A stretch of 63,896 nt of DNA, taken from the NCBI GenBank assembly GCA_024137785.1, contig JAHRHZ010000111.1, positions 16,441,341 through 16,505,236 of the forward strand, given 5' to 3'. Below the pieces are notes generated by a model, which ran no database searches, had not been told where the DNA came from, and saw only the letters and a list, made by a program, of their open reading frames with translations. The position numbers were made by a program, and so were the translations under genes. This stretch comes from Ginglymostoma cirratum. Lineage: Eukaryota. Of the stretch, positions 9,377 through 63,689 are shown piece after piece (within the stretch, counting starts at the first letter, position 1; every line of letters starts with the position of its first letter).

Positions 9377-9496
9377 AGCACTACATATGTGTCTGGCAAT
9401 AATCCACATGAGTTAGAGTCATCTGTAATGAGAGATGGTACGGTGCAGAAAGAAACTAGACAAGCAATTGTGATAACTGAATAAGGACTAGATCTG

Positions 9497-9711
9497 AGAT
9501 AGTAGGAACTGCAGATGCTGGAGAATCTGAGATAACAAGGTGTAGAGCTGGATGAACACAGCAAGCCAAGCAGCATCAGAGGAGCAGGAAGGCTAATGTT
9601 TCGGGCCTAGACCCTTCTTCAGAAGAAGGGTTTAAGCCCGAAACGTCAGCTTTCCTGCTCCTCTGATGCTGCTTGGCCTGCTGTGTTCATCCAGCCCTAC
9701 ACCTTGTTATC
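9497..9711 (-). mobile_element. Palindromic mini-PLE (family 1) with a perfect 14-bp TSD
   Basis: Inverted arms are centred on cccttcttc-a-gaagaaggg. The TSD is aaggactagatctg at 9483-9496 and 9712-9725. A 34-nt unpaired tail lies at 9497-9530. Confidence 0.95.
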
Positions 9712-14439: not shown

Positions 14440-15260
14440 AACCAAAACAGAAATTGCTGGAGAAACTCAGCAGGTCTGGCAGCTTCTGTGATGGGAAAGC
14501 AGGGTTAAAGTTTCAGGTCCAGTGACCCTTCTTCAGAACTATTAGTAGCTAGGAAAATGTGGCATACGTATTGAAGAGAGAGTGTGGAGGTGGGGGTGGA
14601 GTGAAGGGGTAAGCAGTTAGGTGGAAGCAGAGCACAGAAAGAGAGAAAGACAGTTAGAGAGACAAAGGGATGGATGATGGTAAACTAGGCAGTAAGAAAA
14701 GTTGATAATGGGACAAAAAGTCGGTGAAAATGAGTTGGCTTGTAATTACAGGGCCTGGGGGTAGGTAAAGGACATAGAAGAGTGCGTTCAGGTTCTAAAA
14801 TTATTGAACTCGATATTGAGTCCTGAAGGTTGCAGGGTCCCCAAGCAGAAGGTGAGATGTTCTTCTAGCTTGCGCTGAGCCTCTCTCGAGCGTTGCAGCA
14901 GAACATGTTGGTAACAAAAACAGAAGTTGTTAGTAAAGCTGAGCAGGTCTGGTAGCATCTGTGAAGAAAAAAATCAGAGTTAATGTTTCTGAGGAAGGGT
15001 CAGTGGGCCCAAAACGTTAACTCTGATTTTTCCTTCACAGATGCTGCCAGACCTGCCGAGCTTTTCCAGCAACTTCTGTTTTTGTTCCTGATTTACAGCA
15101 TCCGCAGTTCTTTAGTTTTTTTTTCATAGACATACTGGTGGTGTGTTGAAGTGGCAGCCAAGTGGAAGTTCAGGATCATTTTTACAGACAAAATGTAAGT
15201 GTTCTGTAAAGCAGAAGCCCAGTCTGTGTTTATCTCCCCAGTGTAGAGGAAACCACATTA
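14440..15260 (-). mobile_element. PLE 3' fragment (family 2): GIY-YIG C-terminus, 3' UTR and terminal repeat
   Basis: The reverse complement of 14800-14880 reads AQRKLEEHLTFCLGTLQPSGLNIEFNN. A hammerhead-bearing repeat lies at 14440-14545. The fragment hosts a nested palindrome. Confidence 0.85.
14913..15125 (+). mobile_element. Palindromic mini-PLE (family 2) nested inside another PLE
   Basis: Arms are aacaaaaacagaagttg...gttaatgttt and aaacgttaac...caacttctgtttttgtt, followed by the tail cctgatttacagcatccgcagttc. Confidence 0.9.
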
Positions 15261-16539: not shown

Positions 16540-17289
16540 TGTTTTCAGTCCTATGGAGGTGATTTCATTTTTTAAAGATTGGGAATCAAAGTCAGATCAA
16601 AGCAGCTTTAGTAAGAAATCACATGATTTAAGCTAAATGCCTGGAGAGGCTCCATGTTAAGGTAATTTGTGAAATGTTTACTAAGTTTAACATTTTATGA
16701 CCCACAGAAAAAGAGGTCAGAAGCAGGTTGCAGTTCAGAAGGAAATATTCATTCCAGCAGAAGTGCAGTTTTGTTTCTGACAGCCGAGGCCATCAGAAGT
16801 GGGAAGAAGATTTATTTGTTTCAGCAACCCTTATGCTTTTTTTCTTGCATTTCATGGAGAAGAGCCAATGAATTAGCATGTGTCTACTTATCTAAGGAGG
16901 AAACAGTAATGGAGAGAATCATTTATGGTGAATGTGGATAAATGAAATGCTTGCAAATTTGCTGTAGAGTCAGAAATTTTAAAGTGAAGATAGGCCTGAT
17001 ATGTCACTGGGGTTGACTGCCTATAAAGGACATTGCTGGGAAAGAAGGGTTGAGTCTTTTTACTTGCGATAAGATCTTCCCTATTAGCTTTGCTTTGGCA
17101 ATACTTTGTTTTCTGTTTGTTTTCTGAATTTATGCCCTTTTGTGGAAAGTATATTGACAACCTCGAGTGAACATGTTCAGTGACTGCCATATTAACAAAA
17201 CTGAAGAAGTAAAATCTTATGGCCTATCAAGCCAGGTTTCACTCTGGAATCTGACTTGTCTACTACAACCATCAGCTGGGATCATGACA
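16540..17289 (+). mobile_element. Probable solo LTR (5' boundary uncertain)
   Basis: The 3' end tatggcctatcaagccagg...cagctgggatcatgaCA recurs at about 24835-24907 and, inverted, at about 39158-39230. Confidence 0.5.
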
Positions 17290-17323
17290 CAAGCAACTTT
17301 CCAAGGAAAGGAAAGATAAACTC

Positions 17324-18740
17324 GCCCAGTGCCGACGCCGATGTAACTCCGCCCACAGCCGACGCCGACAACGCTCCGCCCACTGCCTCCACAGCCAGCA
17401 GCTCCAGAGGAGTCAGCGACACTGAGCCCTGCCGAGTCTTCACCCTCCCCCAAGACCTCCCCCTTACTGAGGACGAATGGTCAGTCCTCAGTAAAGGGCT
17501 CACCTTTGTCCCCTTCCACACACATATCAACGAATACCGCTCACACTTGGATATTGAGCAGTTTTTCCGCCGCCTCCGCCTCCACGCTTACTTCTCCAAC
17601 CGCGAATCTAACCCTCCCTCTACTGACCCCTTCTCCCGCCTCCAACACAAGCCCTCCTCCTGGACACCACCCCAAGGCCTCCTACCCTCCCTCGACCTCT
17701 TCATCTCCAACTGCCGTCGAGACATCAACCGCCTCAACCTCTCTACCCCTCTCAAACACTCCAATCTCTCCACCGCAGAACATGCAGCCCTCCGCTCCCT
17801 CCGCTCCAATCCCAACCTCACCATAAAACCCACGAACAAAGGAGGGGCAGTCGTAGTATGGCGCACTGACCTCTACATTGCTGAGGCCAGGCGCCAACTC
17901 TCTGACACCTCCTCCTACCGCCCCCTGGATCATGACCCCACCCCCGAGCACCAAACCATCATCTCCCAAACCATCCACAACCTCATCACCTCAGGTGACC
18001 TCCCACCCACCACCTCCAACCTCATCGTTCCCCAACCCCGCACCGCCCGCTTCTTTCTCCTTCCCAAAATCCACAAACCTGAATGCCCTGGTCGACCCAT
18101 TGTCTCCACCTGCTCCTGCCCCACCGAACTCATCTCCACCTACCTAGACTCCATTTTCACCCCCTTGGTCCAGGAACTCCCTACCTACGTCCGTGACACC
18201 ACCCACGCCCTCCACCTCCTCCAGAACTTCCAATTCCCNNNNNNNNNNNNNNNNNNNNNNNNNNNNNNNNNNNNNNNNNNNNNNNNNNNNNNNNNNNNNN
18301 NNNNNNNNNNNNNNNNNNNNNNNNNNNNNNNNNNNNNNNNNNNNNNNNNNNNNNNNNNNNNNNNNNNNNNNNNNNNNNNNNNNNNNNNNNNNNNNNNNNN
18401 NNNNNNNNNNNNNNNNNNNNNNNNNNNNNNNNNNNNNNNNNNNNNNNNNNNNNNNNNNNNNNNNNNNNNNNNNNNNNNNNNNNNNNNNNNNNNNNNNNNN
18501 NNNNNNNNNNNNNNNNNNNNNNNNNNNNNNNNNNNNNNNNNNNNNNNNNNNNNNNNNNNNNNNNNNNNNNNNNNNNNNNNNNNNNNNNNNNNNNNNNNNN
18601 NNNNNNNNNNNNNNNNNNNNNNNNNNNNNNNNNNNNNNTCAAGTTTTCCTGCTCCTATGATGCTGCTTGACCTGCTGTGTTCATCCAGCCCCATGCTTGT
18701 TATCTCAGATTCTCCAGCATCTGCAGTACCTTTTGTCTCT
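17324..18740 (+). mobile_element. 5'-truncated Neptune-type PLE (family 1) spanning an assembly gap
   Basis: The frame is open through LSKGLTFVP, IKPTNKGGAVVVW, LLPKIHKP..PGRPIVS and YVRDTTH. The terminal repeat follows the gap. gataaactc is duplicated at 17315-17323 and 18741-18749. Confidence 0.95.
18239..18638. other. Assembly gap (400 N)
   Basis: Run of N. Confidence 1.
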
Positions 18741-19665
18741 GATAAACTCAGGTTGATAGATTTAATGGATGGCATAGGATAGAAATAATGTTTGATTTAC
18801 TTGACAGCAATGGAACTGGTTTCATTAGAATAAAAAAAATGTAGTATTGAATTATTTTAAAAATGATACCAATAGATACGCTTGAGATTTGGTTATAAAC
18901 AGTGATGCTTCTTGTTTCTGAAACCTCAATCAAAAATGCATTAACCATTGCATAGAGATAACATGGTTCTTTCAGTTATCCTTCTGATGCTCTCGTGAAG
19001 AATGATAGTGTGAATCAGCCATGAGTTAATGTCCATTATATTCAGAGGGTGACTCTTGGTTGACAACCGCATTCACTCTCCCATTCAGTAATGGGAGCTA
19101 GCATCACTGTCTTTTTCAAGTCTCATTAACAAGATCAGTAAACATGGCTTTGATCCCCATTGTGGTCAAACTTAAGTAGCGCTGAAACTCAAAGCTAATT
19201 TTCAGAAATATATTCGTTTAACTATATTTATTGCTTCAGAAAACAAGGCAGTATGTAAAGATTTTTGGAAGATTTAGATGTGTACAAAATGTGGAAAATA
19301 AGATTTATACTAAAATTTCCATCTATAGATATAAGACATATGAAAAAGGACTTGAAATTATAAAAGGGGAAAGAACTCCAAAAAGTGACTCCCAAGAAAA
19401 TAAAATATTAGCATTTCAGCCATTTGATCAGAGCTAAAAATCTAAAGATTGCTTCAAGAGAGCAATGGGGAGACCACAGAAAGCGAGTTTGTCCTAGATT
19501 TGGTTGGATCTTGGAGGTCTCAGACAACCGACAATGGATGTCAGAGGAATATGCGCAGCAGACAAGCATGGCATAGCACTGATCTAATGGCAGGAATAGC
19601 TACAAGCAGCAGCTGCAGTATGGCTTGGGAAGAGCCACAGGGAAGCCATTAGTTCAAGTGACTCC

Positions 19666-20800: not shown

Positions 20801-21104
20801 CTAAAATCTTTACATCTGTGCTAGAAACATTCGGAGTAACATTTTTGAGTTATAATTGTAGAACCAAAAATTCAACAGTGCTTTTTCTATTTTTCAAGTG
20901 CTAATTGCGTACAAGCTTCCAGTATGACAGGAATGTACATCTGAACATATGCCAATCTACGAATTAAGAAAAAGAGTTGGCTACTCACTCCCTCAAGCCT
21001 GCTCTTCAGTAAGATAATGGCATCTTATTGTCCTCATTCAAAGCCATCCTAAATAAACTTTACCCTCCTTGTTTAACAATAATCTATTTACCTTTTCCCT
21101 CCTT

Positions 21105-21225
21105 GGGTCTAGACCCGAAACGTCAGCTTTCCTGCTCCTCTGATGCTGCTTGGCCTGCTGTGTTCATCCAACTCTACACACCTTGTTGTCTCAGATTCTC
21201 CAGCATTGACAGTTCCTACAATCTC
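21105..21225 (+). mobile_element. Single-arm PLE terminal repeat (family 1) with a 24-bp flanking duplication
   Basis: Sequence runs gggtctagacccgaaacgtcagc...ttcctacaatctc. tttaacaataatctatttaccttt occurs at 21072-21095 and 21226-21249. Confidence 0.9.
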
Positions 21226-21651
21226 TTTAACAATAATCTATTTACCTTTACCTGAAAAAGATTTAAACTTTGCTTCCACCACTTCCTCCTCCTTACTTTT
21301 ATACTTGACTCCCCTCACAATAAACAATAACATTCTATTAGTTTTCTCTAATTACTAGATCTATATGCAGATTATTTTTTTATGAGTCCTCCACCGGGAC
21401 ACCAAGACCCTTCTGTATCTCAGAGTATTGCGTGCCTCTCACCATTTATTTTTACTTCATTTGCCACATTCATGTAAACCATATCCTTTTGTAGTTTTCC
21501 TAATGTCATCTTCACAATTTATACTCCACCTACTTTTGTGTCATCAGCAAGTTTAATAACCATAACTTTGGTCTTATTGAAAGGGCACCACCCTCTTTGC
21601 AGTATCCTGCATCCCTGAACGAGGCAGTTTCTTTTCATACATTTTATTTAT

Positions 21652-25832: not shown

Positions 25833-26040
25833 TAAAAACAGAAAACGCTGGAGAAACTCAGCATGTCTGGCAGCATCTGTGGAGAGAAAACAGAGTTAAT
25901 GTTTCAGATCTAGTGACCCATCTTCAGAACCCTGAAATGTTAACTCTGCTTTCTCTCTGCAGAAGCTGCCAGACCTGCTAAATTTCTCCAGCAATTTCTG
26001 TTTTTGTTGCAGATTTCCAACACCCACAGTTCTTTTTTAA
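25833..26040 (+). mobile_element. Palindromic mini-PLE (family 2, older)
   Basis: Inverted arms are aaaaacagaaaacgctggagaaact... and ...tttctccagcaatttctgttttt, plus a tail. The imperfect TSD is agctatgaagaata / agctatgagggaata. Confidence 0.85.
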
Positions 26041-31056: not shown

Positions 31057-31254
31057 ATGATGGGGAGGTGCTGGTGTTGGACTGGGGTGGACAAAGTCAG
31101 AAGTCACACAACACCAGGTTATAGTCCAACAGGTTTATTTGAAATCACAAGCTTTCACAGTGCTCCTCCTTCATCAGGGAGGAGTGCTCCAAATGATTGT
31201 GATTTCAAATAAACCTGTTGGATTATAACTTGGTGTCATGTGGCTTCTGATTTT
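31057..31254 (-). mobile_element. Palindromic mini-PLE (family 3)
   Basis: Arms are tcagaagtcacacaacaccaggttatagtccaacaggtttatttgaaatcacaa and its reverse complement. The minus strand at the axis reads CTGATGAaggag...GAAAGCTT. The tail is on the left. Confidence 0.88.
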
Positions 31255-33982: not shown

Positions 33983-34200
33983 CAAAAAAATGCAGAAGCT
34001 GAGATCCAAGGTAGACAATCAGGAGGTTGGAAGAACACAGCAAGACAGGCAAAATCTGGAGGAAAAGAGCAGTCAAAGTTTTGGGCATTACCCTTGTTCA
34101 GAAGTCCTGAGGAAAGATAATACCTGAAATATCAACTACTTCTTTCCTCCATGTGCTGTCAGGCTTGCTGTGTTCTTTCAAACTCCAGTTTGTTTACCCT
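33983..34200 (-). mobile_element. Old palindromic mini-PLE (fourth, diverged family)
   Basis: Inverted arms ggtagacaa..gaagaacacagcaagacagg and ggcttgctgtgttctttc..ttgtttacc flank cccttgttcag..ctgaggaaag, a decayed hammerhead core. Confidence 0.7.
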
Positions 34201-34479
34201 GTTTCCTTCTATTCCTTGTGGCAATAACTTATTGGAATTATAATTAACCATGTGTGTTCTGTCGATAATGACAAAAAATGTGAATATTTGTCCGTCAGTT
34301 AACATCAATAAAATATTCCCCAATCAGTTTCACCTTACCATGTGAGTCGAAATGACTGCTACATTTCCCACATTACAATGTTGATGAAATTTAAAAGTAT
34401 TTGATTGGCTGTTGTGAGTATCAGGATATCTGAGATTGTGAAATACAATTGGAACTTTTCTTTTCTTTCAAAATCCCAA

Positions 34480-37052: not shown

Positions 37053-37486
37053 GAAGATTGCAGAAGCTTTGTCTCATTCTTCTATTCCTCCTTCGGAAGT
37101 GGAGAATTGTAAAGGTAATGACTGCGTTCAAAATGGAGGATATTGATAAACACAGTAATCAGTCAGCTTAACCCTGGAGATGGAAATCAATAATTCAGAA
37201 CAAAATTAACAAGTGTGGTTTGATTGAAGAAAACCAGCATAAATTTGTTAAAGGCAAATTATATTGAACAAATACTTTAGTTTTTTGATGAGTTAACACA
37301 GAGCATTGAGGAACATAACGTGGCTGGTGTGGTAAACAGGGAATTCTTCAAGGCATTTGAAGTGTTCCATAACACCCTTGACAGCAAAGCTGAAGACCAT
37401 ATCAAAGGGGCAATGACAACATGGATATAAAGCTGGTTTCCTGTCAAGGAAGAGGGTGGTTGCAAACAGTGGTTTATGGAACAGTC

Positions 37487-42658: not shown

Positions 42659-43699
42659 TTAAAATGACAAAGCTCCTTACATGGCCCCAGGCATGATTTA
42701 ACCAGGTTTATACGTCAATCTGTGGGGAATTTTACAGGGAAGGAGGAAAGCTGGTGTTCCCTTGCCCCCACCCCTGGTGAGCTGGTGCTTTGCAGTCCTT
42801 TTTTTATACAACCTGTTGTCCTTCTGCAATCGAATGCTGCAAGGAGGGGTATCTGCTTCTCAGGGGGAGGAAGACCTGACAGCCGATCTGACTGGCTAGA
42901 AAAAATGGTGATATTGTTCCAAGTCTGGATGGTGTGTGTCTTGGAGGGGAAATTGCAGCTGGTGTTGCCATGCATCTTGCTACTTTTGTCCTTCGAATTG
43001 GTGGAGGTCATGGGTTTGGATGGTATTGGTGAGTTTCTAATGGTGGCATTACCCTTTACCCTTTGCCTTCAAATGCACCATTGGGGGAAATAGAGAAACA
43101 TAGACTTCACTCCTTAGTTGGTGATAATGGCAACACAAGTAGCACTACCTCTTTACCAGAGGTGGAATGGCCGTTCCCTGTTGTAGAGCTGTTCAATTTG
43201 CATCAAACCAAGCAATCAACGTGGTGACCTAATTGGACAATGGTGGTAAATTGTGAGGCAAAGTGCAGGACTTTGCATGACATTGCATAACAATGTATGA
43301 GAAACTTGTATCTGCCAGACAGTAACAATATAATTCTAGATAACAAGGTGTGGAGCTGGATGTAAGTACAGTAAACTTACTGGTGCCCACCACCCAAAAC
43401 GGGCTTCCCCCACCTCCCAAATCCCCAGCCGTACCCACGACCTCCCCCACAATGTACCCGCCACCATTGGCCATGAGGCCACTGTCAGAGAACCCACAGA
43501 TGATGTCACATCCGCCACCACCGGATACGCCACTTCCGGGACAGCAAACGCCATCGCTGCTAAAGCCACCGCCTCCATCTCCAAGACCAATACCACAGAC
43601 TCTACCGTCACCGCTGGTGCCACCGCCTACCCCGCTCTGCCCACCGCCGACGCCACTCCACCCATCACGGACGCGGGCGCAACTCCGCCCACTGGCGAT

Positions 43700-45950
43700 G
43701 CAACCCCGCCCATTGCCGACGCCGACGCAATTCCGCCCACAGCCGACGCTGACAACGCTCCGCCCACTGCCTCCACAGCCAGCAGCTCCAGAGGAGACAG
43801 CAACACTGAGCCCTGCCGAGACTTCACCATCCCCCCAGACCTCCCCCTTACTGAGGACGAACGGTCAGTCCTCAGTAAAGGGCTCACCTTTGTCCCCCTC
43901 CACCCACATATCAACAAATACCGCTCACGCTTGGACATTGAGCAGTTTTTCTGCCTCCTCCGCCTCCACGCTTATGTCTTCAACTGTGAACCTAACCCTC
44001 CCTCTTCTGACCCCTCCTCCCGCCTCCAATACAAGCCCTCCTCCTGGACACCACCCCAAGGCCTCCTACCCTCCCTTGACCTCTTCATCTCCAACTGCCG
44101 TCGAGACATCAATCGTCTCAACTTCTCTACCCCTCTCACCCACTCCAACCTCTCCTCCGCAGAACGTGCAGCCCTCCGCTCCAATCCCAACCTCACCATA
44201 AAACCCGCGAACAAGGGAGGCGCAGTTGTAGTATGGCGCACTGACCTCTACATCGCTGAGGCCAGGCGCCAACTCTCCAACACCTCCTCCTACCGCCCCC
44301 TTGATCATGACCCCACTCCCAAGCACCAAACCATCATCTCCCAAATCATCCACAAACTCATCACCTCAGGTGACCTCCCCCCCACCGCCTCCAACCTCAT
44401 CGTTCCCCAACCCCACTCTGCCCGCTTCTATCTCCTTCCCAAAATCTACCAACCTGAATGCCCTGGTCAACCCATTGTCTCCGTCTGCTCCTGCCCCACC
44501 GAACTCATCTCCACCTATCTCGACTCCATTTTCACCCCCTTGGTCCAGGAACTCCCTACCTACGTCCGTGATACCACCCACACCCTCCACCTCCTCCAGA
44601 ACTTCCAATTCCCCGGTCCCCAACACCTCATTTTTACTATGGACGTCCAGTCCCTATACACCTGTATTCCCCATGCAGATGGCCTAAAGGCCCTCCGCTT
44701 CTTCCTGTCCCACAGACCTGACCAATCCCCCTCCACTGACACCCTCATCCGCTTAGCCGAACTCGTCCTCATCCTCAACAACTTCTCTTTCAATTCCTCC
44801 CACTTCCTATAGACAAAGGGGACAGCCATGGGTACCTGCATGGGCCCAAGCTATGCCTGCCTCTTTGTAGGTTATGTGGAACAATCCCTCTTCCGTACCT
44901 ACACTGGCCCTAAACCCCACCTCTTCGTCCATTACATTGATGACTGTATTGGCGCCGCCTCGTGCTCCCACAAGGCGCTCGAACAGTTCATCCACTTCAC
45001 CAACACCTTCCACCCCAACCTAAAGTTCACCTGGACCATCTCCAACACATCTCTCTCCTCCCTGGACCTCTCTGTCTCCATCTCGCGTAATCACCTAGAA
45101 ACCGATATCCATTTCAAGCCCACCGACTCCCACAGCTACCTGGAGTACACCTCCTCCCTCCTTCAAAAATGCCATCTCCTATTCCCAATTCCTTCGCCTC
45201 TGCCGCATCTGCTCCCATTCTTCAAGGACCGCAACCTCCCCGCTGCAGTGGTCGAGAACACCCTCGACCGTGTCTCCCACATTTCCCGCAGCTCAACCCT
45301 CACACCCCGTCCCCGCAATAGCAACCAAAAAAGAATCCCCCTTGTCCTCACGTACCACCCCACCAACCTCTGCATCCAACGCATCATCCTCCGACACTTC
45401 TGCCACCTGCAATCCGACCCCACCACCAAAGACATTTTTCCCTCCCCACCCTTGTCTGCTTTCCGGAGGGACCACTCTCTCCGCGACTCCCTTGTCCGCT
45501 CCATACTCCCCTCCAGCCCCACCACACCTGGCACTTTTCCCTGCAACTGCAGGAAGTGCTACACCTGCCCCCACACCTCCCCCTCACCCCCATCCCAGGC
45601 CCCAAGAAGACTTTCCACATCAAGCAGATGTTCACCTTCACATCTGCCAATGTGGTATACTGCATCCGCTGTACCTGTTGTGGCCTCCTCTACATCGGGG
45701 AAACCAAACGGAGGCTTGGGGATCGCTTTGCAGAACACCTACGCTCAGTTCGCAACAAACAACTGCACCTCCCAGTCACAAACCATTTCAACTCCCCCTC
45801 CCATTCCTCAGACGACATGTCCATCCTGGGCCTTCTGCAGTGCCACAATGATGCCACCTGAAAGCTGCAGGAACAGCAACTCATATTCAGCCTGGGAACC
45901 CTGCAGCCCAATGGTATCAATGTGGATTTCACAAGCTTCAAAATCTCCCC
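43700..45950 (+). pseudogene. Disrupted PLE RT/GIY-YIG endonuclease polyprotein
   Basis: ORFs 43931-44812 and 44828 onward share a frame and are separated by one TAG (44810-44812). Indels lie near 45160, 45215 and 45580, and there is a TGA at 45859-45861 inside the endonuclease domain. Confidence 0.9.
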
Positions 45951-46267
45951 TCCCCATTCCGCATCCCAAAACCAACCCAGCTCGTCCCCACCTCCCTAAC
46001 CTGTTCTTCCTCTCACCTATCCCCTCCTCCCACCTCAAGCCCCACCCCCATCTCCTACCTACTAACCTCATCCCACCCCCTCGACCTGTCCGTCCTCCCT
46101 GGACTGACCTATCTCCTCCCTACCTCCCCACCTACACTCACCTTTATTGGCTCCATCCCCACCTCTTTGACTTGTCTGTCTCCTCTCCACCTATCCTCTC
46201 CTCTATCCATCTTCTATCCGCCTCCCCCTCTCTCCCTATTTACTTCAGAACCCTCTTCCCCTTCCCC

Positions 46268-46305
46268 ATTTCTGTTGAAGGGTCTCGGCCCGAAACGTTA
46301 ACCTT
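46268..46305 (+). ncRNA. Minimal type-I hammerhead ribozyme motif (core variant CTGTTGA)
   Basis: Reads ctgttga-a-gggt-ctcg-gccc-gaaa-cg-t-t. One core substitution relative to CUGANGA probably inactivates it. Confidence 0.65.
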
Positions 46306-47815
46306 TCCTGCTCCTATGATGCTGCTTGGCCTGCTGTGTTCATCCAGCTCCACACCTTGTTATCTCGGATCCTCCAGCATCTGCAGTACCTATTATCTCT
46401 GAAGCAATGTAATTCTACCCCTCATTTCATTAAGAGTTGATTAACTCTCAGGTACTGTGAGATGTTTGACTAATAAAGACAAATTGTTCAATCAACCTTT
46501 AACATTTTCATTAATGTACCCCAATTAATAGACTTCAGTTGTATTCCACTAATTTTTGTATGTGATCATTACTGTTTTTGTCCTTTGTTTAGATTGAATG
46601 CCTCTCACTATGTCAATACTCTCATACCTCTTTGTAGCAACCCTACGGAGTTACCATCTGCATTGCTTGTTCACGTTATCTCTGTAGATTTCAACAGATA
46701 CTTACAAGTACCTGACGACCTAAAAACCACAAAGCTCTGTCAATTGGGAATTCAGCTTCTTCTGAAAGTACTGATTAGGCAATCCTTACTGATGTCCAAA
46801 TTTTTATTTAAATCTCCCAAAGCGCAGAGATTTTACGTAAGATCAATGCAACAGCTCTTCCTACATGCACAGTGGGAGATCTTTCAAGCACAGTGTCATC
46901 AAAGTTAAGATTTTCTGCCTGGAGATTAATTGGAAAATGTATTTGGAGAGGAAAGTTGCAATTTTCATTTTCGGAGGTTCCATCTGTTGCAATTGAAATA
47001 TTCAGTAGGCATCGAAAATTGATATTCTGATCATTTTTTGTAATGCTTGAAATTTAAATTAGATATCTTTTGGTTGAATGACAGTAAGCAGACTTGAAGC
47101 ATTTCCCTCCTTCCTTTAAAACTTTGAAACGTTAATTCTTTCTTGGGTTTTCTTTTAAGAAGGGGAGATGGGTTAAACTAATTCATACTTATATTATTTT
47201 CTTAACGAAATACAACATTTCATAATTTCAAATATAGAAGTCCAAAGAAAAGACTTGAAATTTTGAATGCCATACATTTGAGCAGAATTTTTGTTCAAGA
47301 AGGCATGGTTTTCATTGGCTAAATTAGTGAATGCTAAAACAAAACCTTATCAGACATTAAGTCCATTCCCTTCATATTAAGTTTAAGCTTGAGCTTCATC
47401 AATGAAAGAATGCTGACAGTATTTTAAGTTATAATAAATGAGTGCGGGAAGTTTTACCACATACAAATATTTAAAGATAACACTATTGTTAGATTCAATC
47501 TGAATATTAATACAAATATAAATACTTGCTTTGAAATGGAATAGGATTAACCTTTGATAACAGCTTGAAATAAGAAATGATCTGAATTTAACTTATTTGA
47601 ACGTGCACCTAAAGGATGTCAGGGTCTGAGATTTATCCTGTTTTGAAGTGTTTCGGATATTGGTAGATATGTCCCCTTAACTGAATGATTGTTACGCACT
47701 CTTCTGATTTTAAAGAGGTTTGTAAGATCAAATCGTCACATTAACATTCTTCTTTGACAGTGCCTTCCAAACCCACAATCTCTCATACCCAGATTAAGAA
47801 CAAGGACTCCTCCTT

Positions 47816-48649: not shown

Positions 48650-49635
48650 TAGCTTTGGGAGCCATGACACCAGGCTGCAGCCTCTGGCCCAAGCTTGAAC
48701 AGCACATATCAGAATGGGTTCTTAAAGCTTTGCCAGAATGATTACATTGTCATCAGAAATGCAGTGTGTATGTATGCACTTAAGTCAGCCAAATAAATTC
48801 TCGAGTGAACCAACCATTTCAGTGCAATAGCTGTGTAGTTGCTGCATGTGACAGAAATATCTCGTGTTATGTCAGAGGATGAAGATTGCTCAGAGATTAC
48901 AGGACACCTCAATGGCAAAATGATTAGTTTTCAGCACTTCATCATCAGATAGCAGCAAAAACTCAAGTGCCCATATAATCCCATCATGAGACCAGGCGGA
49001 ACCTTTGGCCTAATCTTGAACAGCACATATTGGAATGCATCCTTGAAGATTTACCAGAATAGTTACATGAAAGGCCCAGAGTGAGATCTTTAATACGATC
49101 ATGTAGCCAAAGTAATTTAGGTTAATTTTGACGAACTCTATAGTTCAGATGCCGATGACATTGAATTTGATGCTTTTTAAACTGTATGATTGTAGTTGAA
49201 ACTAACCTGGTAGAATTAGTACATTCAATATAATGTGGCATGCTAATTTAGTTTGAAAGGCAGGTTTCATTTTCACTTTTCAAAATGGCGAAAATCTTCA
49301 CCAGTGGTAAATGTTTTATACATGGCGCATAAGTTGACACTAATTCTGGGAAGGATTTTATGAACAAAAACAAAGTTGCTGGAAAAGCCAGATCTGGCAG
49401 CATCTGTGAAGGACAAAACAGAGTTAACGTTTCAGGTCTGGTGACCCTTCTGAGAAGGGTCACCAGACCCAAAACATTAACTCTGTTTTTTCCTTCACAG
49501 ATGCTGCCAGACCTGCTGAGCTTTTCTAGCAACTTTGTTTCGGTTCCTGATTTACAGCATCCACAGTTCTTTCGGTTTTTACTTAGGATTTTATGAAGCT
49601 CCACATGTTGCCTTATATGTCTTCTCAATAATTAA
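48650..49635 (+). mobile_element. Internally deleted pogo/Tigger-like DNA transposon
   Basis: Frameshifted CENP-B-type HTH WPKLEQHISEWVL..QNDYIVIRNA..MKIAQRL..KMISFQHFII, an acidic C-terminus FDELYSSDADDIEFDAF*, and inverted subterminal motifs cataagttgac / gttgccttatatg. Confidence 0.7.
49365..49584 (+). mobile_element. Palindromic mini-PLE (family 2) with a perfect 13-bp TSD
   Basis: The axis is ggtctggtgacccttct-g-agaagggtcaccagacc. The TSD is aggattttatgaa at 49352-49364 and 49585-49597. Confidence 0.95.
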
Positions 49636-52767: not shown

Positions 52768-52967
52768 GATGAACTGCTTTTCCAGGTATGAATCCAATCA
52801 GCAAGGATATTTTTCTTGCTGATTCCATTGATTTCTTTATTGCAAGGACTTCTTAACTCCACACATATCAGAAGCTACTTTAATATCAAATGTCACTTTC
52901 AACTCACCTCTAGAGTTCAGCTGTCTCGTCCGTGTTTGGATGATGCCAGGATAAATTCAGAAGCTGA

Positions 52968-53197
52968 GATAACAAGATGTAGAGCTGGTTGAACACAGCA
53001 GGCCAAGCAGCATCAGAGGAGCAGGAAGGCTGACGTTTCGGGCATGGACCCTTCTTCAGAAGAAGGGTCTGAAGAAAGGTCTAGGCCCGAAACATCAGCC
53101 ATCCTGCTCCTCTCATGTTGCTTGGCCTGCTGTGTTCATCCAGCTCTACACCTTGTCGTCTCAGATTCTCCAGCATCTGCAGTTCCTACTATCTCTG
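52968..53197 (+). mobile_element. Palindromic mini-PLE (family 1) with a hammerhead core on each strand
   Basis: Arms are as at 9497-9711 but with the tail on the right. The TSD is aattcagaagctga (52954-52967) / aatttggaagctga (53198-53211). Confidence 0.93.
53029..53061 (-). ncRNA. Minimal type-I hammerhead ribozyme motif, intact core
   Basis: The minus strand reads tt-CTGAAGA-a-GGG-tccatg-CCC-GAAA-cg-T-C-agc. This gives CUGANGA, stem II, GAAA, palindromic ACGU in place of stem III, and a GUC cleavage triplet. Confidence 0.8.
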
Positions 53198-56100
53198 AAT
53201 TTGGAAGCTGACTGATATTGAAAGAACGCTAACGGAGTATCAGTAAATAGCTTATTGTTGAATGTATGACACATGATAACACTTCACTAATGACTGAGAG
53301 TAAATTGCTGAGTTATAATTGGCCAATTTGGATTGGTCTTGGTTTTTTTGGACAGGACATACATAGACATTTTCTACATTTCTGGGTAGATGTTAATGTT
53401 GTAGCTGTACTGGAATAGCAAGGCAATGCCACTGCCACTACAGCACCTCCTGGATGCCCAGCTTTGAGTTGGTTGATCTGTTTGAAGTCTGCCCCATTTA
53501 ATATGGTTATAATGCCACACAATTCAGTGGAGGCTATCCTCAAGGAGAAAACAATAACATCACCTGCACATCTGGGCACTCTTACCAAAACTGCCAGTGA
53601 TATGTAGTTTAGGGTGGGTGACATCAAGTAGGCTTTTCCCTTTTGGTTCCCTTGCCACCTACGACAGACCCAGTCTAACAGTTCTATCTTTTAGGAGTCA
53701 GCCAGATCTGTCAATAATGGTGCTGCAGCAGAGCCACTCTTAATGGTGGACATTGACATTCCCACCTGGAGTTTATTCTGTGTCCTTGACACCCTCAGTG
53801 CTTCTTCCAGCATGTGTAAAACCTATAAAGTTGCAAGTTTGTGTAACGTGTGCTTGAATTCATTCTTTTAAAATGGTCAAATTAGACCATTGAATAAAAT
53901 TGTGTATTTAGGAAAACACAAAATTGCATATCAGCGACTGGAAAACCACTGTTGAAATTGGCAGTTTTCTTAAATGGTAACAATTTTAATATCATTGCCT
54001 ATTGATTAACACACATTCTTGATATTATTAGAATCGATCTTTTCAGCAAAGATTATATTGGATTCTCAAGTGCTACAAATCTATTAAAAACAAGGGGAAT
54101 CAAGCTTAAAACTAAGTAACTGAAAGAAATCATCATACATTTTTAATTTTGACTTTCAAATAGACGAATTTAAACTGAACAGCAACTATGAAAAGACCTC
54201 ATAATTAGCACCATGGTATACGCTGAGTGCGGAAATAAATTATTCACAATCTCAGGATCGGTCCTAGCAGATAGTAATCTGCATATTCCACTCTAGTCAG
54301 GCTGATATGGAGATTGAAGCTTATCCATGTTGTCAGTGTACCTGCTAGAGGAACCTTCTCCTAATTAGACACCTCTGCACTCAACATCCTGGTTAGGAGA
54401 ACACATCTGATCTTCACATTACTTGCCCCTTGGATTCACAGCATTACCACACTAATAGACCCACTGGAAAATATGGGCACTGCCGAGACAGATAGACGCC
54501 CACAGGGACTCCTGAACATAGAAGCACCCTTAGCTGCTTACTTGAATTAATTATTTAAAGACTCCTACAACTGGGAGGATCAGTGGCCTTAGGGAAAATC
54601 CTCTGTAAGCTTATGCAGAGGATATGCTTTGATCCCCTTGGTATCTGCATGATTGAGGCATGGAAATTCTAGCTCTGTCGTCTCCTTGGTCTGCTAATGT
54701 CAAGCTACCTTGATTGAGTTAGCTGTCTCATCTGGAGTTGGTGGGGGTGGGGGTCGATGGTGGGTGGGGATGGGAGGCACTCTGTGTAGGGAAAACACTG
54801 GGAACAGCACCAAATGATCCCTATTTAGGACCATCATTGCCTTAAATGGTGCCTGCCTTATTGGAGTGGGCAGCTGGAATGGTTATGAGCCCACCTGGCG
54901 TGGGGGATGGGGGGTGGGAATTTCATCAGAGAGTCATCCTTACATGACTTGCCCCAATTTCTTGTTCACCTTGCCTCCAATACTGGGCTGCATTTTATTA
55001 GGCCAAGGCAGAGGGGATTAGAAAGCTTTTCTTTTTCTTTTTCTTCTTGGGTTTGTTATTTTTCTGGCTCAATGGACATCTAAATCATTTGAAAAAACTT
55101 TCATTGGAGATTCCATTACTGAAGCTGAAAGTTTTTGCAATGATTGTAACTATGTGTTATCTGTCAATAAACTGTGGCTTCAAAAATATTTCTTACATTG
55201 AACTTCACATGGTTGTTAGTGGCTCTTGCATGTCTAGTCTATCCCTGGTTACTCAGATGGTACAATTGTTTCTTCTAAAGATGTACCACATCAACAATAA
55301 CTTGGCATAGAAATTGGTTCACATGAAAGAGGGAATACCGTCTGCAATGGGTAGGGTCAAGACACTTGATGTTAGACTGTCGACCTCCTTTACATAAGGC
55401 CAGTGAACTCCTGATAGCTCTTTTATATCTGTCGACAGGTTGTCAGTGTGTCAGATTTGAATTTTAGGTGAATACATTGTTTGCAGAAGGCTTTGAGAAG
55501 GTGCCAAGGGTTGGTATGGGAGGTCAGTTTGGTGGAGAGGTAGTTTCAGAGGGTGAAACCAGACGATCAGGAGGCATTAAATCTCCACTCCCATTCCAAG
55601 GAAAATATTTAACTTTCTTTGTGGTCACAAGTGGTCTGATTAGAACTTGCTAGTCTGCCTGCGCATGAACCTGATTTCCCCTGAACACGTCAACTGAGCA
55701 GTGATGGCTTACAGGGCTGACCACTTTCAGGAAAGAGACCAGGCTCTTTGCGTATGCAAAGAAGGGCTTAACTTGGCCATCAGTTGACAGTTTTGAACAT
55801 CTCTTTATCTGCGTTTTGAAAAAATGTTGAGGGGCACACTTCCAGTGCAAAGTATGCTTGGTCAAACTGCACACCATATTGCATGCTGAGATGGCCATTC
55901 CCTTCTGCAAACTGGATGTGGCATCAGCCTGTCTGTTGACACATGAGTGTATGCATGGCATCTTTCACGCAGGAAAGAATGCCAATGCACGTCACCAAGG
56001 CAATCATTCTGGAAACTACTGATGCCAAGACAAAGAAGCAGACATTAAGAAGAGTAATTAAAAGCTTGGGGAAAGGAGCTGGTATTAAGAATAGCTTTAA

Positions 56101-59091: not shown

Positions 59092-60980
59092 CCTACAAAA
59101 ATAGAAGTTGCTGGAAAAGCTCAGCAGGTCTGGCAGCATCTGTGGAGAGAAATCTTAGTTAACGTTTCAGGTTGAGTGACCCTCAGAACTGATGATATCT
59201 AGGAAAATATTGTCTATAAGCAAAAGATAGGATGGTGGGAAGGAGCAGGAGTAAATGACAGGTGGTGATGCAGCCCAAAGAGTGACATGAACAGTTGGAC
59301 AGATAAGGGAGTGGAGAACGATCTGGCTATGAGGGTGAATAGCTAATAATGGAGACTGTTAGTGGCTAACAACGAGTTGTGTGTAACAGCAGACTATGTG
59401 ACAACAAGGCCTGGTGTGTGGAAGTTGGGGTAAGGACATGGGAGATGGCGCTCAAGCCCTGAAGTTATTGAACTCGATATTGAGTCCAGAAGGTAGCAGT
59501 GTTCCCAAGAAGAAAATGAGGTGTTGTCCTTTCAGCTTGTGTTGAGCTTCGCTGGAACACTGTAGCAAGCCTGAGATAGAGGTGTTGGCCAGGGAACAGG
59601 GTGGTGTGTTTTAAAGTGGCAGGCAACAGGTAGCTCAGGGTCTGCAGAATGTAGATGTTCCGTGAAGCGGTCACCCAATCTGCACTTTGTTTCACAACGT
59701 AGAGGAGACCATGCTGTGAGCAGCGAATGCAGTGGGCTAGATTGTGGGAAGTGCAGGTAAAGTGCTGCTTCACCTGGAAGGTATGTTTGGGCCCTTGGAT
59801 ACTGAGGAGGGAGAAGGTGTTACACCTTCGCCGATGGCAGGGGAAGGTGCCGTGGGGCAGTGGGGGAGGTGTTGGGAGTGACCGAAGAGTGGACCAGGGT
59901 GTTCTGAAGGCTGACAAGGGAGGGGGAGGGAAATGTGTCTAACGATGGCATCTCGCTGGAGGTGATGGAAATGGCATCTGATGATCTTCTGGATGTGGAT
60001 GCTGGTGGGATGGTAGGTAAGGACAAGGGGAACCCTATCACTGTTGCAGGAGGGAAGTGAGGGAGTGGGGGCTGAAATGCGGGTGATGAAATGCAGCCTA
60101 CAACAGTGCTGGGGAATCCTCAGTTGAGGAAGAAGGTGGACATTTCAGAGGCTCCCTTGTTGAAGTTGTCACCATCAAAACATATGCAATAGAGACAGAA
60201 GAATTGGGAGAATGGAATGAAGTCTTTACAGGAAGCAGGGTGTGAGGATCTATAGTCCAGGTAACCATGGGAGTCAGTGAGTTTATTGGTGACCAGTCAA
60301 TCCCCAGAAATGGAAACAAAGATGTCAAGGAAGGGAAAGGAGGAATCAGAGATGCACCAGATGAAGGTGAGAGAGGGATGGAAATTGGAAGCGAAATCGA
60401 TAAGATTTTCCAATTCTGAATGAGAGGTGGAGGCAGCAGCAAGGATATCACTGATATGTCAGAGAAAGAGTTATGGGTGGGGACCTGAATAGGACTGGAA
60501 CAAGGAATGTTCCATTTACACCACAAAGAGACAGGCATAACTGGGGCCCATGTGCATACCCATGACCATGCCTCTGACTCGAAGGAAATGAGAGGAATTA
60601 AAAGTAAAGTTGTTGAGAGTGGGAATGAGCTCGGACAGGTAGAGGAGGCTGGTAGTGGAGGGGTTGGTTCAGGCCTTTGTTCCAGAAAGAAGTGGAGAGT
60701 CCTGAGGCCATCCTGGTGGGGGATGGATGTGTAAAGGGATTCCATGTCCATGGTAAAGAGGTGGCAGCTAGATGCTGCAAACTGGAAATTCTGAAACTGG
60801 CATAAAGTCAGAGGAATCGCAGATGTAAGTGGGCAGGGACTGGACCGGCTCAGAAAAGACCGAGTCAAGGTAGGAAGAGATGAGTTCAGTGGGGCAGGAG
60901 CAGATAGAAACAATGGGTCTGCCTGGGTAGTCGTGTTTGTGGATTTTGGGAAGGAAGTAGAAGCAAGCTGTGCTTTCCAC
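59092..60980 (-). mobile_element. 5'-truncated, degraded Neptune-type PLE (family 2)
   Basis: The minus strand reads FYFLPKIHK..PGRPIVSICSCPTELISSYLDS, LFTMDMESLYTSIPHQDGL, GTFPCHRRRCN and HCIRCSQHGLLYV. The terminal repeat lies at 59092-59195. Confidence 0.93.
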
Positions 60981-63689
60981 ATGGTGTTACTAACTGCTTT
61001 TGCAACTGCCCTGGTATTTTAGTTGGTGGGTGTATTGTCCACTGAGACAACACAGTGTCAGGGAGGTTGTGGGTTTGTATCACAACTTTTGGTGAGATAA
61101 TAGATCCGAGCTAGAACACCAATGGAGATTCAACAGTTGACTGGATTACTCAAGGCCTGCCCAGTCTCCTACTCTTGAATGCAAACGAGAAGGCAGATAT
61201 TGCTTTTGGAAGGGCTAAGGGTAAACTATGCACATTTCCACTGTCAAATGCCTGACTGTCACTCATTGATTGGGCTCAAACAGAGCAACATGCCTTTTGG
61301 TGCAACGGGACCGTTCCTACCTCTGGGCTAGAAGCTCTGGGTTCTGGCTTGACTTAAGGATTCGATGGCCACAGAAGCAGGCTCATAACGCGGTCAGACA
61401 GGTGAACTATCAACTTGTAAATTCTTCCAGTTTGCCTGTGGAAAGACCAGATGAGTTTCCTAGTCAGCCCAAAACTGTGTGTTAGCTGAGGGATTATAAC
61501 AAGCAACAAGAATGGCCATTTGATTGAAGAATCAGTGGGCAGCCATTCTGCTGAACCCATACCCCAGTGTGAATCATCATTTTCAGGGGAACAGCACTGA
61601 GAGCAGATGGAGGTGGGGAATTTAAAAAAAAAACATGTGATTCACATTCGTGATTACATTCAATAGGCTTTTGTCCTCAGTTCAGCCATGTTCTGAGAAA
61701 TCAAATAATATTTCCCTGTGTGATCTTCCTACCTTCCAATCACTAAAGGCCATCGCACTTATTTTCGGAACAACTCTGCTATCATTTTAGACACTCCTGG
61801 CATCTTTTTTTGTGTCGATCCATATTAATAACACTAGTTTTCTCAGTGGCCTTCTGATAAGTATTCATGAACTAAACTTTCACAGGTAGACGGTATTGCA
61901 GCTGAATTTATTAGTTTATTCCCTTCTATTCTTTGGATTTACAAATAGAGCTGCTCATATTTATGAAGCTATTCTGAGATCCACACTCATTCTGATGTTA
62001 ATTGAGTTAATTTTCAGATTCTTTTGCATTCAGATATTTACAAACCTGGTCTAGGTGACATATCCAACTTATTGAAATTCATATAATATGGTGTCATATA
62101 CATCAACAAGTTAATATTAATGATATCCTTTCGCAAACGCCTTTTGTATTAATATTCATAAGCTTCTTACACCTATTCACTTGCGAGAGACTTGACATAT
62201 AATGACCAGCATTGGGACAACTTTAAAAGGGCTTTTGACAGCTGGTCTTCTAATATAGATTCAATCCTGAATTATGCACTTATTATTCAAAATGAAACTG
62301 GATGGTCATTATGGGTAATTTATGCAGGTCATGTGTAAATTAGTCGTCACTGCTTAATCATTGTATATAGATGAATTATGCGGTTGATTGAACAGAGGCA
62401 GAAATGAAGTACTTCCAGACTGTGCCCAAACATTTTTAATGGCTATTGATTTTCTACTTTTGTCATAAGATAGAGGTTAAAACAAGAATTCATAATTATA
62501 ATCATCCAGTGATATTATTCAATATTGATTGCAATGCTTTAAACACTGATCATCACAAAACATTTTCGGATAAAGGATACAAAAACTCTGCACCATCGTA
62601 CTAGAGCAAGGACTGCATTACATGCTGAAAAACTGACAATAAGGAAGACTTATTATACAGAAAAAACATGTATAAAATGCCTTTAATGATCTAAGTCCTA
62701 CAATATTTTACAGCTAATGAATTATTTTTGAAATGTAATCACTGTTGACATCTCAGAAATTGGAAAATTATGATGAATGTTTTGGGGTAACCCAAGGCGT
62801 TTAAACTTATTAAGTGTATGGTATGGCATTGGTCACATGTTCAGATTTAATATGTATGTGGTAGCAAACCCAGCCCTCGTGAGTCTCACCTTAGCACTGA
62901 CAGAGTACTCACCTCACCGGAGCTTGTTTCAAAGCAGATATCTCTCATGTTAATGATAACGTTCCAATAATAAATTGCTTAACAGGGAATGACTCATTCC
63001 ATGGATTAGTTTATTTAAAAAGTAAAACACGTTGCAAGGTATGAAGCAGAAATTACAGCAAGCAACTGGTTTCTGTGCATACAGTTTGCAGCCACACAGC
63101 AGACCAATCAGCTGACAGAGTTACAACATTGCATACATACAGTCCATGGAGCTCTTACAGGCAAACTGTCTTAAAGGCAATTTACACATATAGCTCACTC
63201 CTTTCCAAAAAAAAGTTTAGCTGCTTACAGCTAAGTGTGCCTATGAATCTCTATTATACATAGGTAATTTGTCAATTTGTCCAGGTTTTGTGACAGTGAC
63301 TTTTCTTGAAATTGTTTTTATTCCAATAATTGGAATTGCTTTTTAAAAATTGTTTATCTTGATGTGCGACAACCAACCTTGTTACAGATTTGCTACGGAC
63401 CGATCTCATTCTACAAACTGTTTTGAATGGTTCAAAATTTCTTGGCATTTACTATTTTGTTCCTTAAAAGCTTACAGCTCATTCTGAAGTTCCTAACTTT
63501 AGACACTGGATTTATCTAACTCTAGTGAAGTTTCAGCTTTCTGTTGGTAAACGATATATTTTTTCTCATTCATATTCCCTACTATCAACTATGAGTTGGA
63601 TTATAAATGTTGAAAATATAGTTCAGTTCAGAAGCTAAAATTCCTGCAACAAATAACTCACTTCCTAAGTTCCTAAAGCCTGCCCACTG

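Follow-up and report, generated by a model that had tools for sequence, protein, structure and literature searches.

The window analysed here, a stretch of 63,896 nucleotides from Ginglymostoma cirratum, contains at 49352-49597 two ends of a Penelope-like element (PLE) joined head to head at the start of a hammerhead ribozyme core, and this raises the question of why copies of such ends break off and turn back at this particular point. The first-pass annotation had suggested that the ribozyme fold, or the 5' edge of the repeat, stops reverse transcription or makes it switch template there, which would give the hammerhead a structural role beyond cleavage. We keep the edge and propose another cause for it: it is probable that reverse transcriptase runs off at a predicted transcription start located there and that the two arms come from twin target priming. 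The insertion has the following parts; here and below, relative positions count from C3, the C of CUGA, as zero.

49352-49364, plus strand: left copy of the 13-bp target-site duplication
49362-49450, minus strand: inverted arm, a family A PLE end reaching the proximal 3' site (about +92 to +98), without tail
49448-49456, unstranded: head-to-head junction with short shared microhomology and a damaged CUGANGA box
49450-49584, plus strand: direct arm, a hammerhead remnant reaching the distal 3' site (about +131)
49546-49584, plus strand: tail of the direct arm, about 38 nt
49585-49597, plus strand: right copy of the target-site duplication

The limits 49352-49597 coincide exactly with the outer ends of the 13-bp duplication, as for one single insertion. 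Around its centre (49452), both arms begin at +5 by alignment, while by eye the right arm begins at about -2 with one base of the box lost; the hammerhead core pattern is not intact at 49450. Other palindromes and long copies of the same elements occur in the window:

9493-9711, unstranded: family B palindrome, centre 9621, arms -2 to +129 and -2 to +91, 14-bp duplication
14913-15121, unstranded: family A palindrome, arms +21 to +96 and -2 to +130
25834-26029, unstranded: family A palindrome, the tailless arm (-3) being the more complete
31064-31250, unstranded: family C palindrome, centre 31178, arms -1 to +114 and +8 to +81
34007-34201, unstranded: old diverged palindrome, 72% complementary, centre about 34104, box at 34107, arms 34007-34101 and 34107-34201
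43332-46402, plus strand: long family B PLE, truncated at the 5' end, where it carries a 31-nt inverted arm
46237-46244, plus strand: putative TATA-like box of this long copy, 31 nt before the predicted start
46266-46272, plus strand: putative initiator-like motif, predicted start A 46268, C3 at 46272
52959-53200, unstranded: family B palindrome, arms -2 to +100 and -1 to +131
59095-61050, minus strand: long decayed family A PLE

The palindrome centres were confirmed at or near the CTGANGA box, where the first-pass annotation had placed them, as were the two sites where one arm begins at the box and the other is shortened (14987, -2/+21; 25930, -3/+28 by alignment). Its single-arm starts fared unevenly, since the copy at 37482 begins at -5 and those at 749 (+5), 21105 (+8) and 39611 (+6) fit more loosely. 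Box-spanning copies with 5' ends at 14673, 36535 and 42560 were missing from it, together with the long copies around 46142 and 59315.

The long window copies connect the PLE ends of families A and B to coding sequence, and families C and D were added from the rest of the genome, which spans 4.36 Gb and is rich in PLE ends. The copy at 43332-46402 contains a broken reverse transcriptase (RT), a Cys-rich linker, a GIY-YIG endonuclease, a 3' UTR, the hammerhead and the tail; its predicted start A (46268) is the first base of hammerhead helix I. The copy at 59095-61050 has a TATA-like stretch at about 59213-59221, a predicted start A at 59190 and C3 at 59186. Such an order of RT then GIY-YIG upstream of the repeat is that of the endonuclease-bearing PLEs, to which these elements belong, as judged from the following matches. 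In family B the GIY-YIG domain is found with an E value of 3e-4, just below the Pfam cut-off, and the RT piece, for which neither a Pfam match nor a solved-structure match was found, is 26% identical to the RT of family D (E 1e-12). Family D matches RVT_1 (E 3e-7) and, weakly, GIY-YIG (E 0.02); in family A the RT and endonuclease motifs were recognised by eye only, and no ORF was found in family C. Because their RT fragments are only 26% identical, D and B represent distant lineages. The linker between RT and endonuclease was seen by eye in B and A and not in the D pieces, and A and B may be of the Neptune clade and D of Penelope/Poseidon. Other PLE traits are present, namely a tail of 30-40 nt, an inverted 5'-truncated copy and target duplication; a full-length partial-tandem copy (pseudo-LTR followed by an ORF start) was not found in the genomic sample described below, of which 39% of the bases are N.

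The repeat contains the minimal type I hammerhead pattern (CUGANGA, helix II, GAAA, NUH, helix I and a palindromic helix III), with the core pattern intact in 40 of 87 A copies, 69 of 113 B, 22 of 43 C and 119 of 154 D. An Rfam scan of the window gave no hammerhead and only sub-threshold miRNA-hairpin matches. In the leaders of families D and C (for instance L181:1555-1619, minus strand, and L249:1494-1540), the RNA as predicted opens with bases that can pair with the CUGAUGA core or fold into a rival hairpin, and this predicted pairing could hold the 5' hammerhead off. Two other identities were considered for the units. They are not non-LTR retrozymes, as those studied are single or head-to-head and not in head-to-tail tandem, nor are they MITE-like palindromes amplified as units, as 103 pairs have 103 distinct centres. 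The units are independent, dead insertions of PLE ends.

To place the edge, we used an unbiased sample of 156 ten-kb stretches taken at round coordinates in the Ginglymostoma cirratum genome, in which 601,951 of 1,560,000 bases are N, leaving 958 kb readable. Copies were located by their downstream part only and their 5' ends called through local alignment to the long copies, and rates are given as 5' ends per nucleotide at risk. Duplicates were removed before the final counts (window or query duplicates L001, L167, L197 and L227, the duplicated locus L208 and one of the two L005 copies), together with alignments scoring below 50 or ending before +45. With counting windows set after the data were seen, and palindrome arms counted separately although not independent, 38 of 100 family A copies have their 5' end at -7 to 0, that is 38 per 272 nt at risk against 6 per 860 at -110 to -20 (20-fold, p 6e-19). 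Family B behaves similarly, with 40 of 129 copies (17 of the 129 censored by N) ending at -7 to 0, or 40/562 against 12/3252 upstream (19-fold, p 6e-24). A fixed 5' edge therefore exists, as had been proposed, and the breakpoint distribution along families A and B is not flat in this sample. The profile of 5' ends has a sharp upstream edge and a tail on the downstream side; the upstream edges fall at -4 to -6 in A, -4 to -7 in B, -7 to -9 in C and -17/-18 in D, so that the A/B edge (-4 to -7) is outside the CUGA box itself. Exact genome-wide counts for one B subfamily with a purine before the start gave 6225 at -4, about 2740 at -5 (1918 with G, together with the roughly 25% of 3304 that have A), 1128 at -6 and 325 at -8, a 19-fold fall from -4 to -8, all slightly inflated since some junctions occur twice about 440 bp apart; the mode among the tested positions is the initiator-like A at -4. 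The predicted self-cleavage site, which had been put about 25-30 nt downstream, was located at about +28 to +30, and no peak was found at +25 to +35 in A (9/915) or B (8/1260), in agreement with the earlier argument that the 3' cleavage product was not what these inserts were copied from.

The flanks of 77 single edge copies have no common upstream sequence: they gave 4 pairwise matches, of which 3 are remnants of inverted arms beside N and 1 is the tail of a neighbouring element. Target duplications were found in 21 of 76 single edge copies, against 1.6 in shuffles. The clustering of PLE 5' ends at a fixed edge is real.

The origin of the arms was studied on 103 head-to-head pairs from the window, the random stretches and targeted loci, after removal of 4 duplicates. 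The 3' ends could be classified in 78 of them (25 of 103 stayed unclassified), and 76 of these 78 combine one proximal and one distal end, where independence predicts half (p 1e-20). The proximal site lies at about +92 in A and B, +85 in C and +76 in D, and the distal one at about +130 in A and B, +115 in C and +113 in D; these two fixed genomic ends match the two RT start sites known in vitro. Target duplications of 8-16 bp flank 44 of 76 pairs, against 1.6 in shuffles. Only 25 of 63 A/B pairs have both arms within -7 to +7, the commoner form having one arm at the edge and the other shorter. Among the 103 junctions, all with distinct centres, 35 show overlap or microhomology, 4 are blunt and 64 contain filler. 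Two target-primed cDNAs, one per strand and per start site, joined end to end, are the likely origin of the pairs.

Some features of the junctions and of their surroundings deserve mention on their own. The filler is often a short copy of nearby element sequence (L015:7140-7200, L110:2060-2110, and the 6-nt filler at window 53061-53068 within 52959-53200), a templated pattern of the kind linked to polymerase-theta end joining. In young copies of family B, junctions are frequently doubled at a spacing of about 430-445 bp (for example G000:C4:3471164 and 3471606), and at L132:1387-2093 a single 15-bp target duplication encloses two identical head-to-head junctions, with an interior that reads N; this doubling could reflect multimeric insertion or an assembly effect. 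At 43332-43362 of the window, the inverted arm ends at the proximal site and the joined 3-kb copy ends at the distal site, and the two-site pattern of the palindromes is thus also found in a long insertion. A second long family B copy (window 17205-18744, partly N) shows an apparent large internal deletion, and a single B arm at window 21072-21252 has a 27-bp target duplication and, at its 5' end, a few bases resembling a miniature inverted arm. Lastly, A and B ends are inserted beside or into each other (L058:8309-8750, L050:6208-6430, L074:7632-7900), suggesting that PLE ends are favoured as targets.

In the mechanism that we propose, a TATA/initiator promoter of the pseudo-LTR would start the RNA at or just before the hammerhead. 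Reverse transcription would then begin internally at two sites about 35-40 nt apart, as shown in vitro for an anole PLE (PMC11167929, in its available part), and it is this internal initiation that makes a start near the 5' end of the transcript possible. Each nicked strand of a staggered cut would prime one of the sites, and each cDNA would reach the 5' end of the uncleaved RNA or stop short of it. The 3' ends of the cDNAs, to judge from the junctions, would be joined through microhomology or filler with the loss of a few bases. Since the product lacks the TATA box, a palindrome would not be transcribed alone and each would arise anew; and the hammerhead would mark the edge only because it is located at the transcript start, a structural stop role, as first proposed, not being needed by the run-off.

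The edge could also be the 5' end of the RNA with the second arm made by fold-back or self-priming, either of one cDNA or on an antisense template as proposed in the available part of PMC3846280. We consider this unlikely. Microhomology at 35 of the 103 junctions would suit such a process, and so would the 23 of 76 pairs in which the tailed, distal arm is the more 5'-complete together with the 18 tied pairs; but in the remaining 35 the tailless, proximal arm is the more complete, an outcome that copying of the tailed arm cannot yield; this disfavours fold-back of a single cDNA and makes it improbable as the general route. The palindrome at 25834-26029, whose more complete arm is tailless, is one that fold-back of a tailed arm does not explain. 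Filler at 64 of the 103 junctions also argues against fold-back, as does the frequency of the proximal 3' end in single copies (49 in A, 46 in B), which points to an independent start site. Whether one RNA or two served as template cannot be read from the identity between arms (0.85-0.91), as this is above the mean identity to other copies and not above that to the best other copy.

As for what sets the edge, the long copies were scored with the TATA and initiator consensus motifs. The best TATA match lies at -35 in family A (5.5 of 14 weighted), at -35 or -31 in family B (a tie, 15.4 against 15.8 of 39, with two mismatches), at -37 in C (4 of 9) and at -48 in D (73 of 96). Adding 30-31 nt leads to -4/-5 in A, -4/-5 in B, -7 in C and -18 in D, so the edge is found 30-31 nt after a TATA-like box in all four families, and each predicted start has a pyrimidine-purine step, that of D being C-G and not a full initiator match. 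This is the arrangement of a Pol II core promoter, and on sequence grounds the boxes are candidates for that function. Read from the sequences, helix I begins at -4 in A, B and C and at -5 in D. Families A and B alone cannot separate a transcription start from a ribozyme stop because their predicted start base is the first base of helix I, and it is accordingly D (15 ends) that chiefly tells the two apart, with weak help from C (3 nt). The D set comprises 155 copies, the majority retrieved for their resemblance to downstream query sequence and not at random, with 20/40, 20/40 and 0/40 matches examined from three query lists; it peaks at -19 to -15 (15/662 against 39/9547 upstream, 5.5-fold, p 1e-6), with 7/1168 at -7 to 0 (1.5-fold, p 0.34). 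Most likely, then, the edge is the 5' end of the RNA, where reverse transcriptase runs off.

It is quite unlikely that RT is halted or let go at the 5' edge of the core by the hammerhead fold, or by an RNA dimer that its palindromic helix III holds together. That the edge is the first base of helix I in A and B agrees with such a stop, and so does a minor D cluster of 5 ends at -6/-7, near the helix I edge of this family. The main D peak, however, lies at -18, well before the box and with no excess at -7 to 0, and the C edge (-7 to -9) falls outside helix I (-4) by 3 nt, and on these points we depart from the view that RT stops or switches at the ribozyme fold. When a structure arrests RT, it normally does so 3' of the fold, and no peak exists at +25 to +35. 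Moreover, core mutants left the insertion product unchanged in vitro (PMC11167929, available part).

We consider very unlikely that a fixed RNA 5' end is made by processing at the base of a 5' folded domain, the TATA-like boxes being incidental. In A, C and D a predicted helix or hairpin does start no more than 1 nt from the edge (in D a small predicted hairpin starts at -18), and a pile of molecule starts was not seen in either of the two RNA read sets searched. The poly-A run seems to lack strand information, and most of its signal comes from copies lying within other transcripts; the second run gave 17 and 0 reads only. In the poly-A reads, strand-switch joints have a side at -7 to +1 in 10 of 14 among the joints listed (with 166 further joints), which speaks for the edge, and the family D reads confirmed only the two 3' ends. 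Against processing stand the constant 30-31 nt from a conserved AT-rich box in four families, the pyrimidine-purine step at each edge and an excess of G before the -4 start. An untemplated G at this place is expected if the cap is copied, or if a base is added terminally when RT runs off. Among the first 100 matches listed, 62 have an additional G ahead of the -4 start (null 0.41, p 2e-5), as have 59 of 87 of these once palindrome centres are left out; before -5 there are 1918 G against about 830 A, and before -6 no excess (47 among 100 matches listed). The -8 control is also G-rich (54 among 100 matches listed; -4 against -8, p 0.32) and is not a clean null, and the G excess is only suggestive as a cap signature. 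A splice acceptor at the helix I edge was considered too and rejected, as 18 of 38 family A edge copies keep the AG that splicing removes, B and C have no AG there and no exon is shared upstream. That the pattern is an artefact, of alignment drop-out at the conserved core where subfamilies differ in their upstream sequence or of a few palindromic masters amplified as units, is hardly credible: family A is old and diverged and breakpoints come from local alignment, but the unrelated upstream flanks and the target duplications of single edge copies, the 103 distinct junctions and the 19-fold fall of the exact counts speak against it.

Run-off at a start site followed by twin priming can be compared with known systems. 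The available parts of PMC3846280 (Arkhipova et al. 2013) and PMC8557442 (Craig et al. 2021) describe the same insertion anatomy, with inverted ends or pseudo-LTRs arranged head to head, a one-sided tail of 30-40 nt, duplicated target sites, and a putative TATA box and initiator; there, palindromes are attributed to self-priming and the tail to endonuclease resolution, and those parts do not describe 5' ends accumulating at the initiator. The Ginglymostoma arms differ from those units in being stubs of about 90-135 nt whose ends track TATA+30. With the Poseidon PLE of the green anole, studied in vitro (Frangieh et al. 2024, PMC11167929, available part), they share two internal RT sites bounding the tail; in that system both target strands are cut and extended, uncleaved RNA is the main substrate and the length of the product is fixed by the template's 5' end. 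Head-to-head products and genomic 5' ends do not figure in the available part of that paper, and the pairing of one site per arm comes from the genomic copies analysed here. The hammerheads resemble those of metazoan PLEs, according to the part available of Cervera and de la Pena 2014 (PMC4209133), in their minimal type I core, short helix I and palindromic helix III and in occurring as dispersed single motifs with some pairs on opposite strands. The helix I edge of D. virilis is the end of an intron in that account, whereas in the present copies transcription is predicted to begin there and a splicing origin does not fit. As Penelope of D. virilis relies on an internal promoter without TATA (PMC2377424, available part), the TATA layout is not universal among PLEs. 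The accessible portion of bioRxiv 10.64898/2026.07.22.740005 does not mention promoters or start sites.

Outside the PLEs, L1 twin priming joins two target-primed cDNAs by microhomology into non-overlapping inverted parts, unlike the PLE arms, which are both copies of one stretch. Retroviral minus-strand strong-stop DNA, a short cDNA that stops where the RNA's 5' end lies, is transferred, whereas the short PLE cDNA is integrated. In the openly accessible literature searched, we met with no account of PLE 5' ends gathering at a start site, nor one of a two-site priming origin of PLE arms. The elements are of a known kind, and the mechanistic reading appears new.

For the origin of inverted, one-tailed PLE insertions, the available part of PMC3846280 suggests self-priming on an antisense template. 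The pairing statistics link the two RT start sites known in vitro to the two arms and provide a simple, testable model. The result would also put the hammerhead right where the RNA begins, so that its cleavage would take off a capped leader of about 30-50 nt; since the inserts keep the leader, uncleaved RNA is the template. More tentatively, and with some doubt on our part, integration may be intrinsically two-armed, with a dimeric RT-endonuclease using one start site per strand and a strong-stop cDNA as the commonest product in this genome, recording the capped start to the nucleotide; the two RNAs would then possibly be paired through the palindromic helix III, by analogy with a retroviral dimerisation signal. 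If two-armed integration is true, the inverted pseudo-LTR and the one-sided tail would follow from one mechanism, and genomes could be read as start-site maps of extinct elements.
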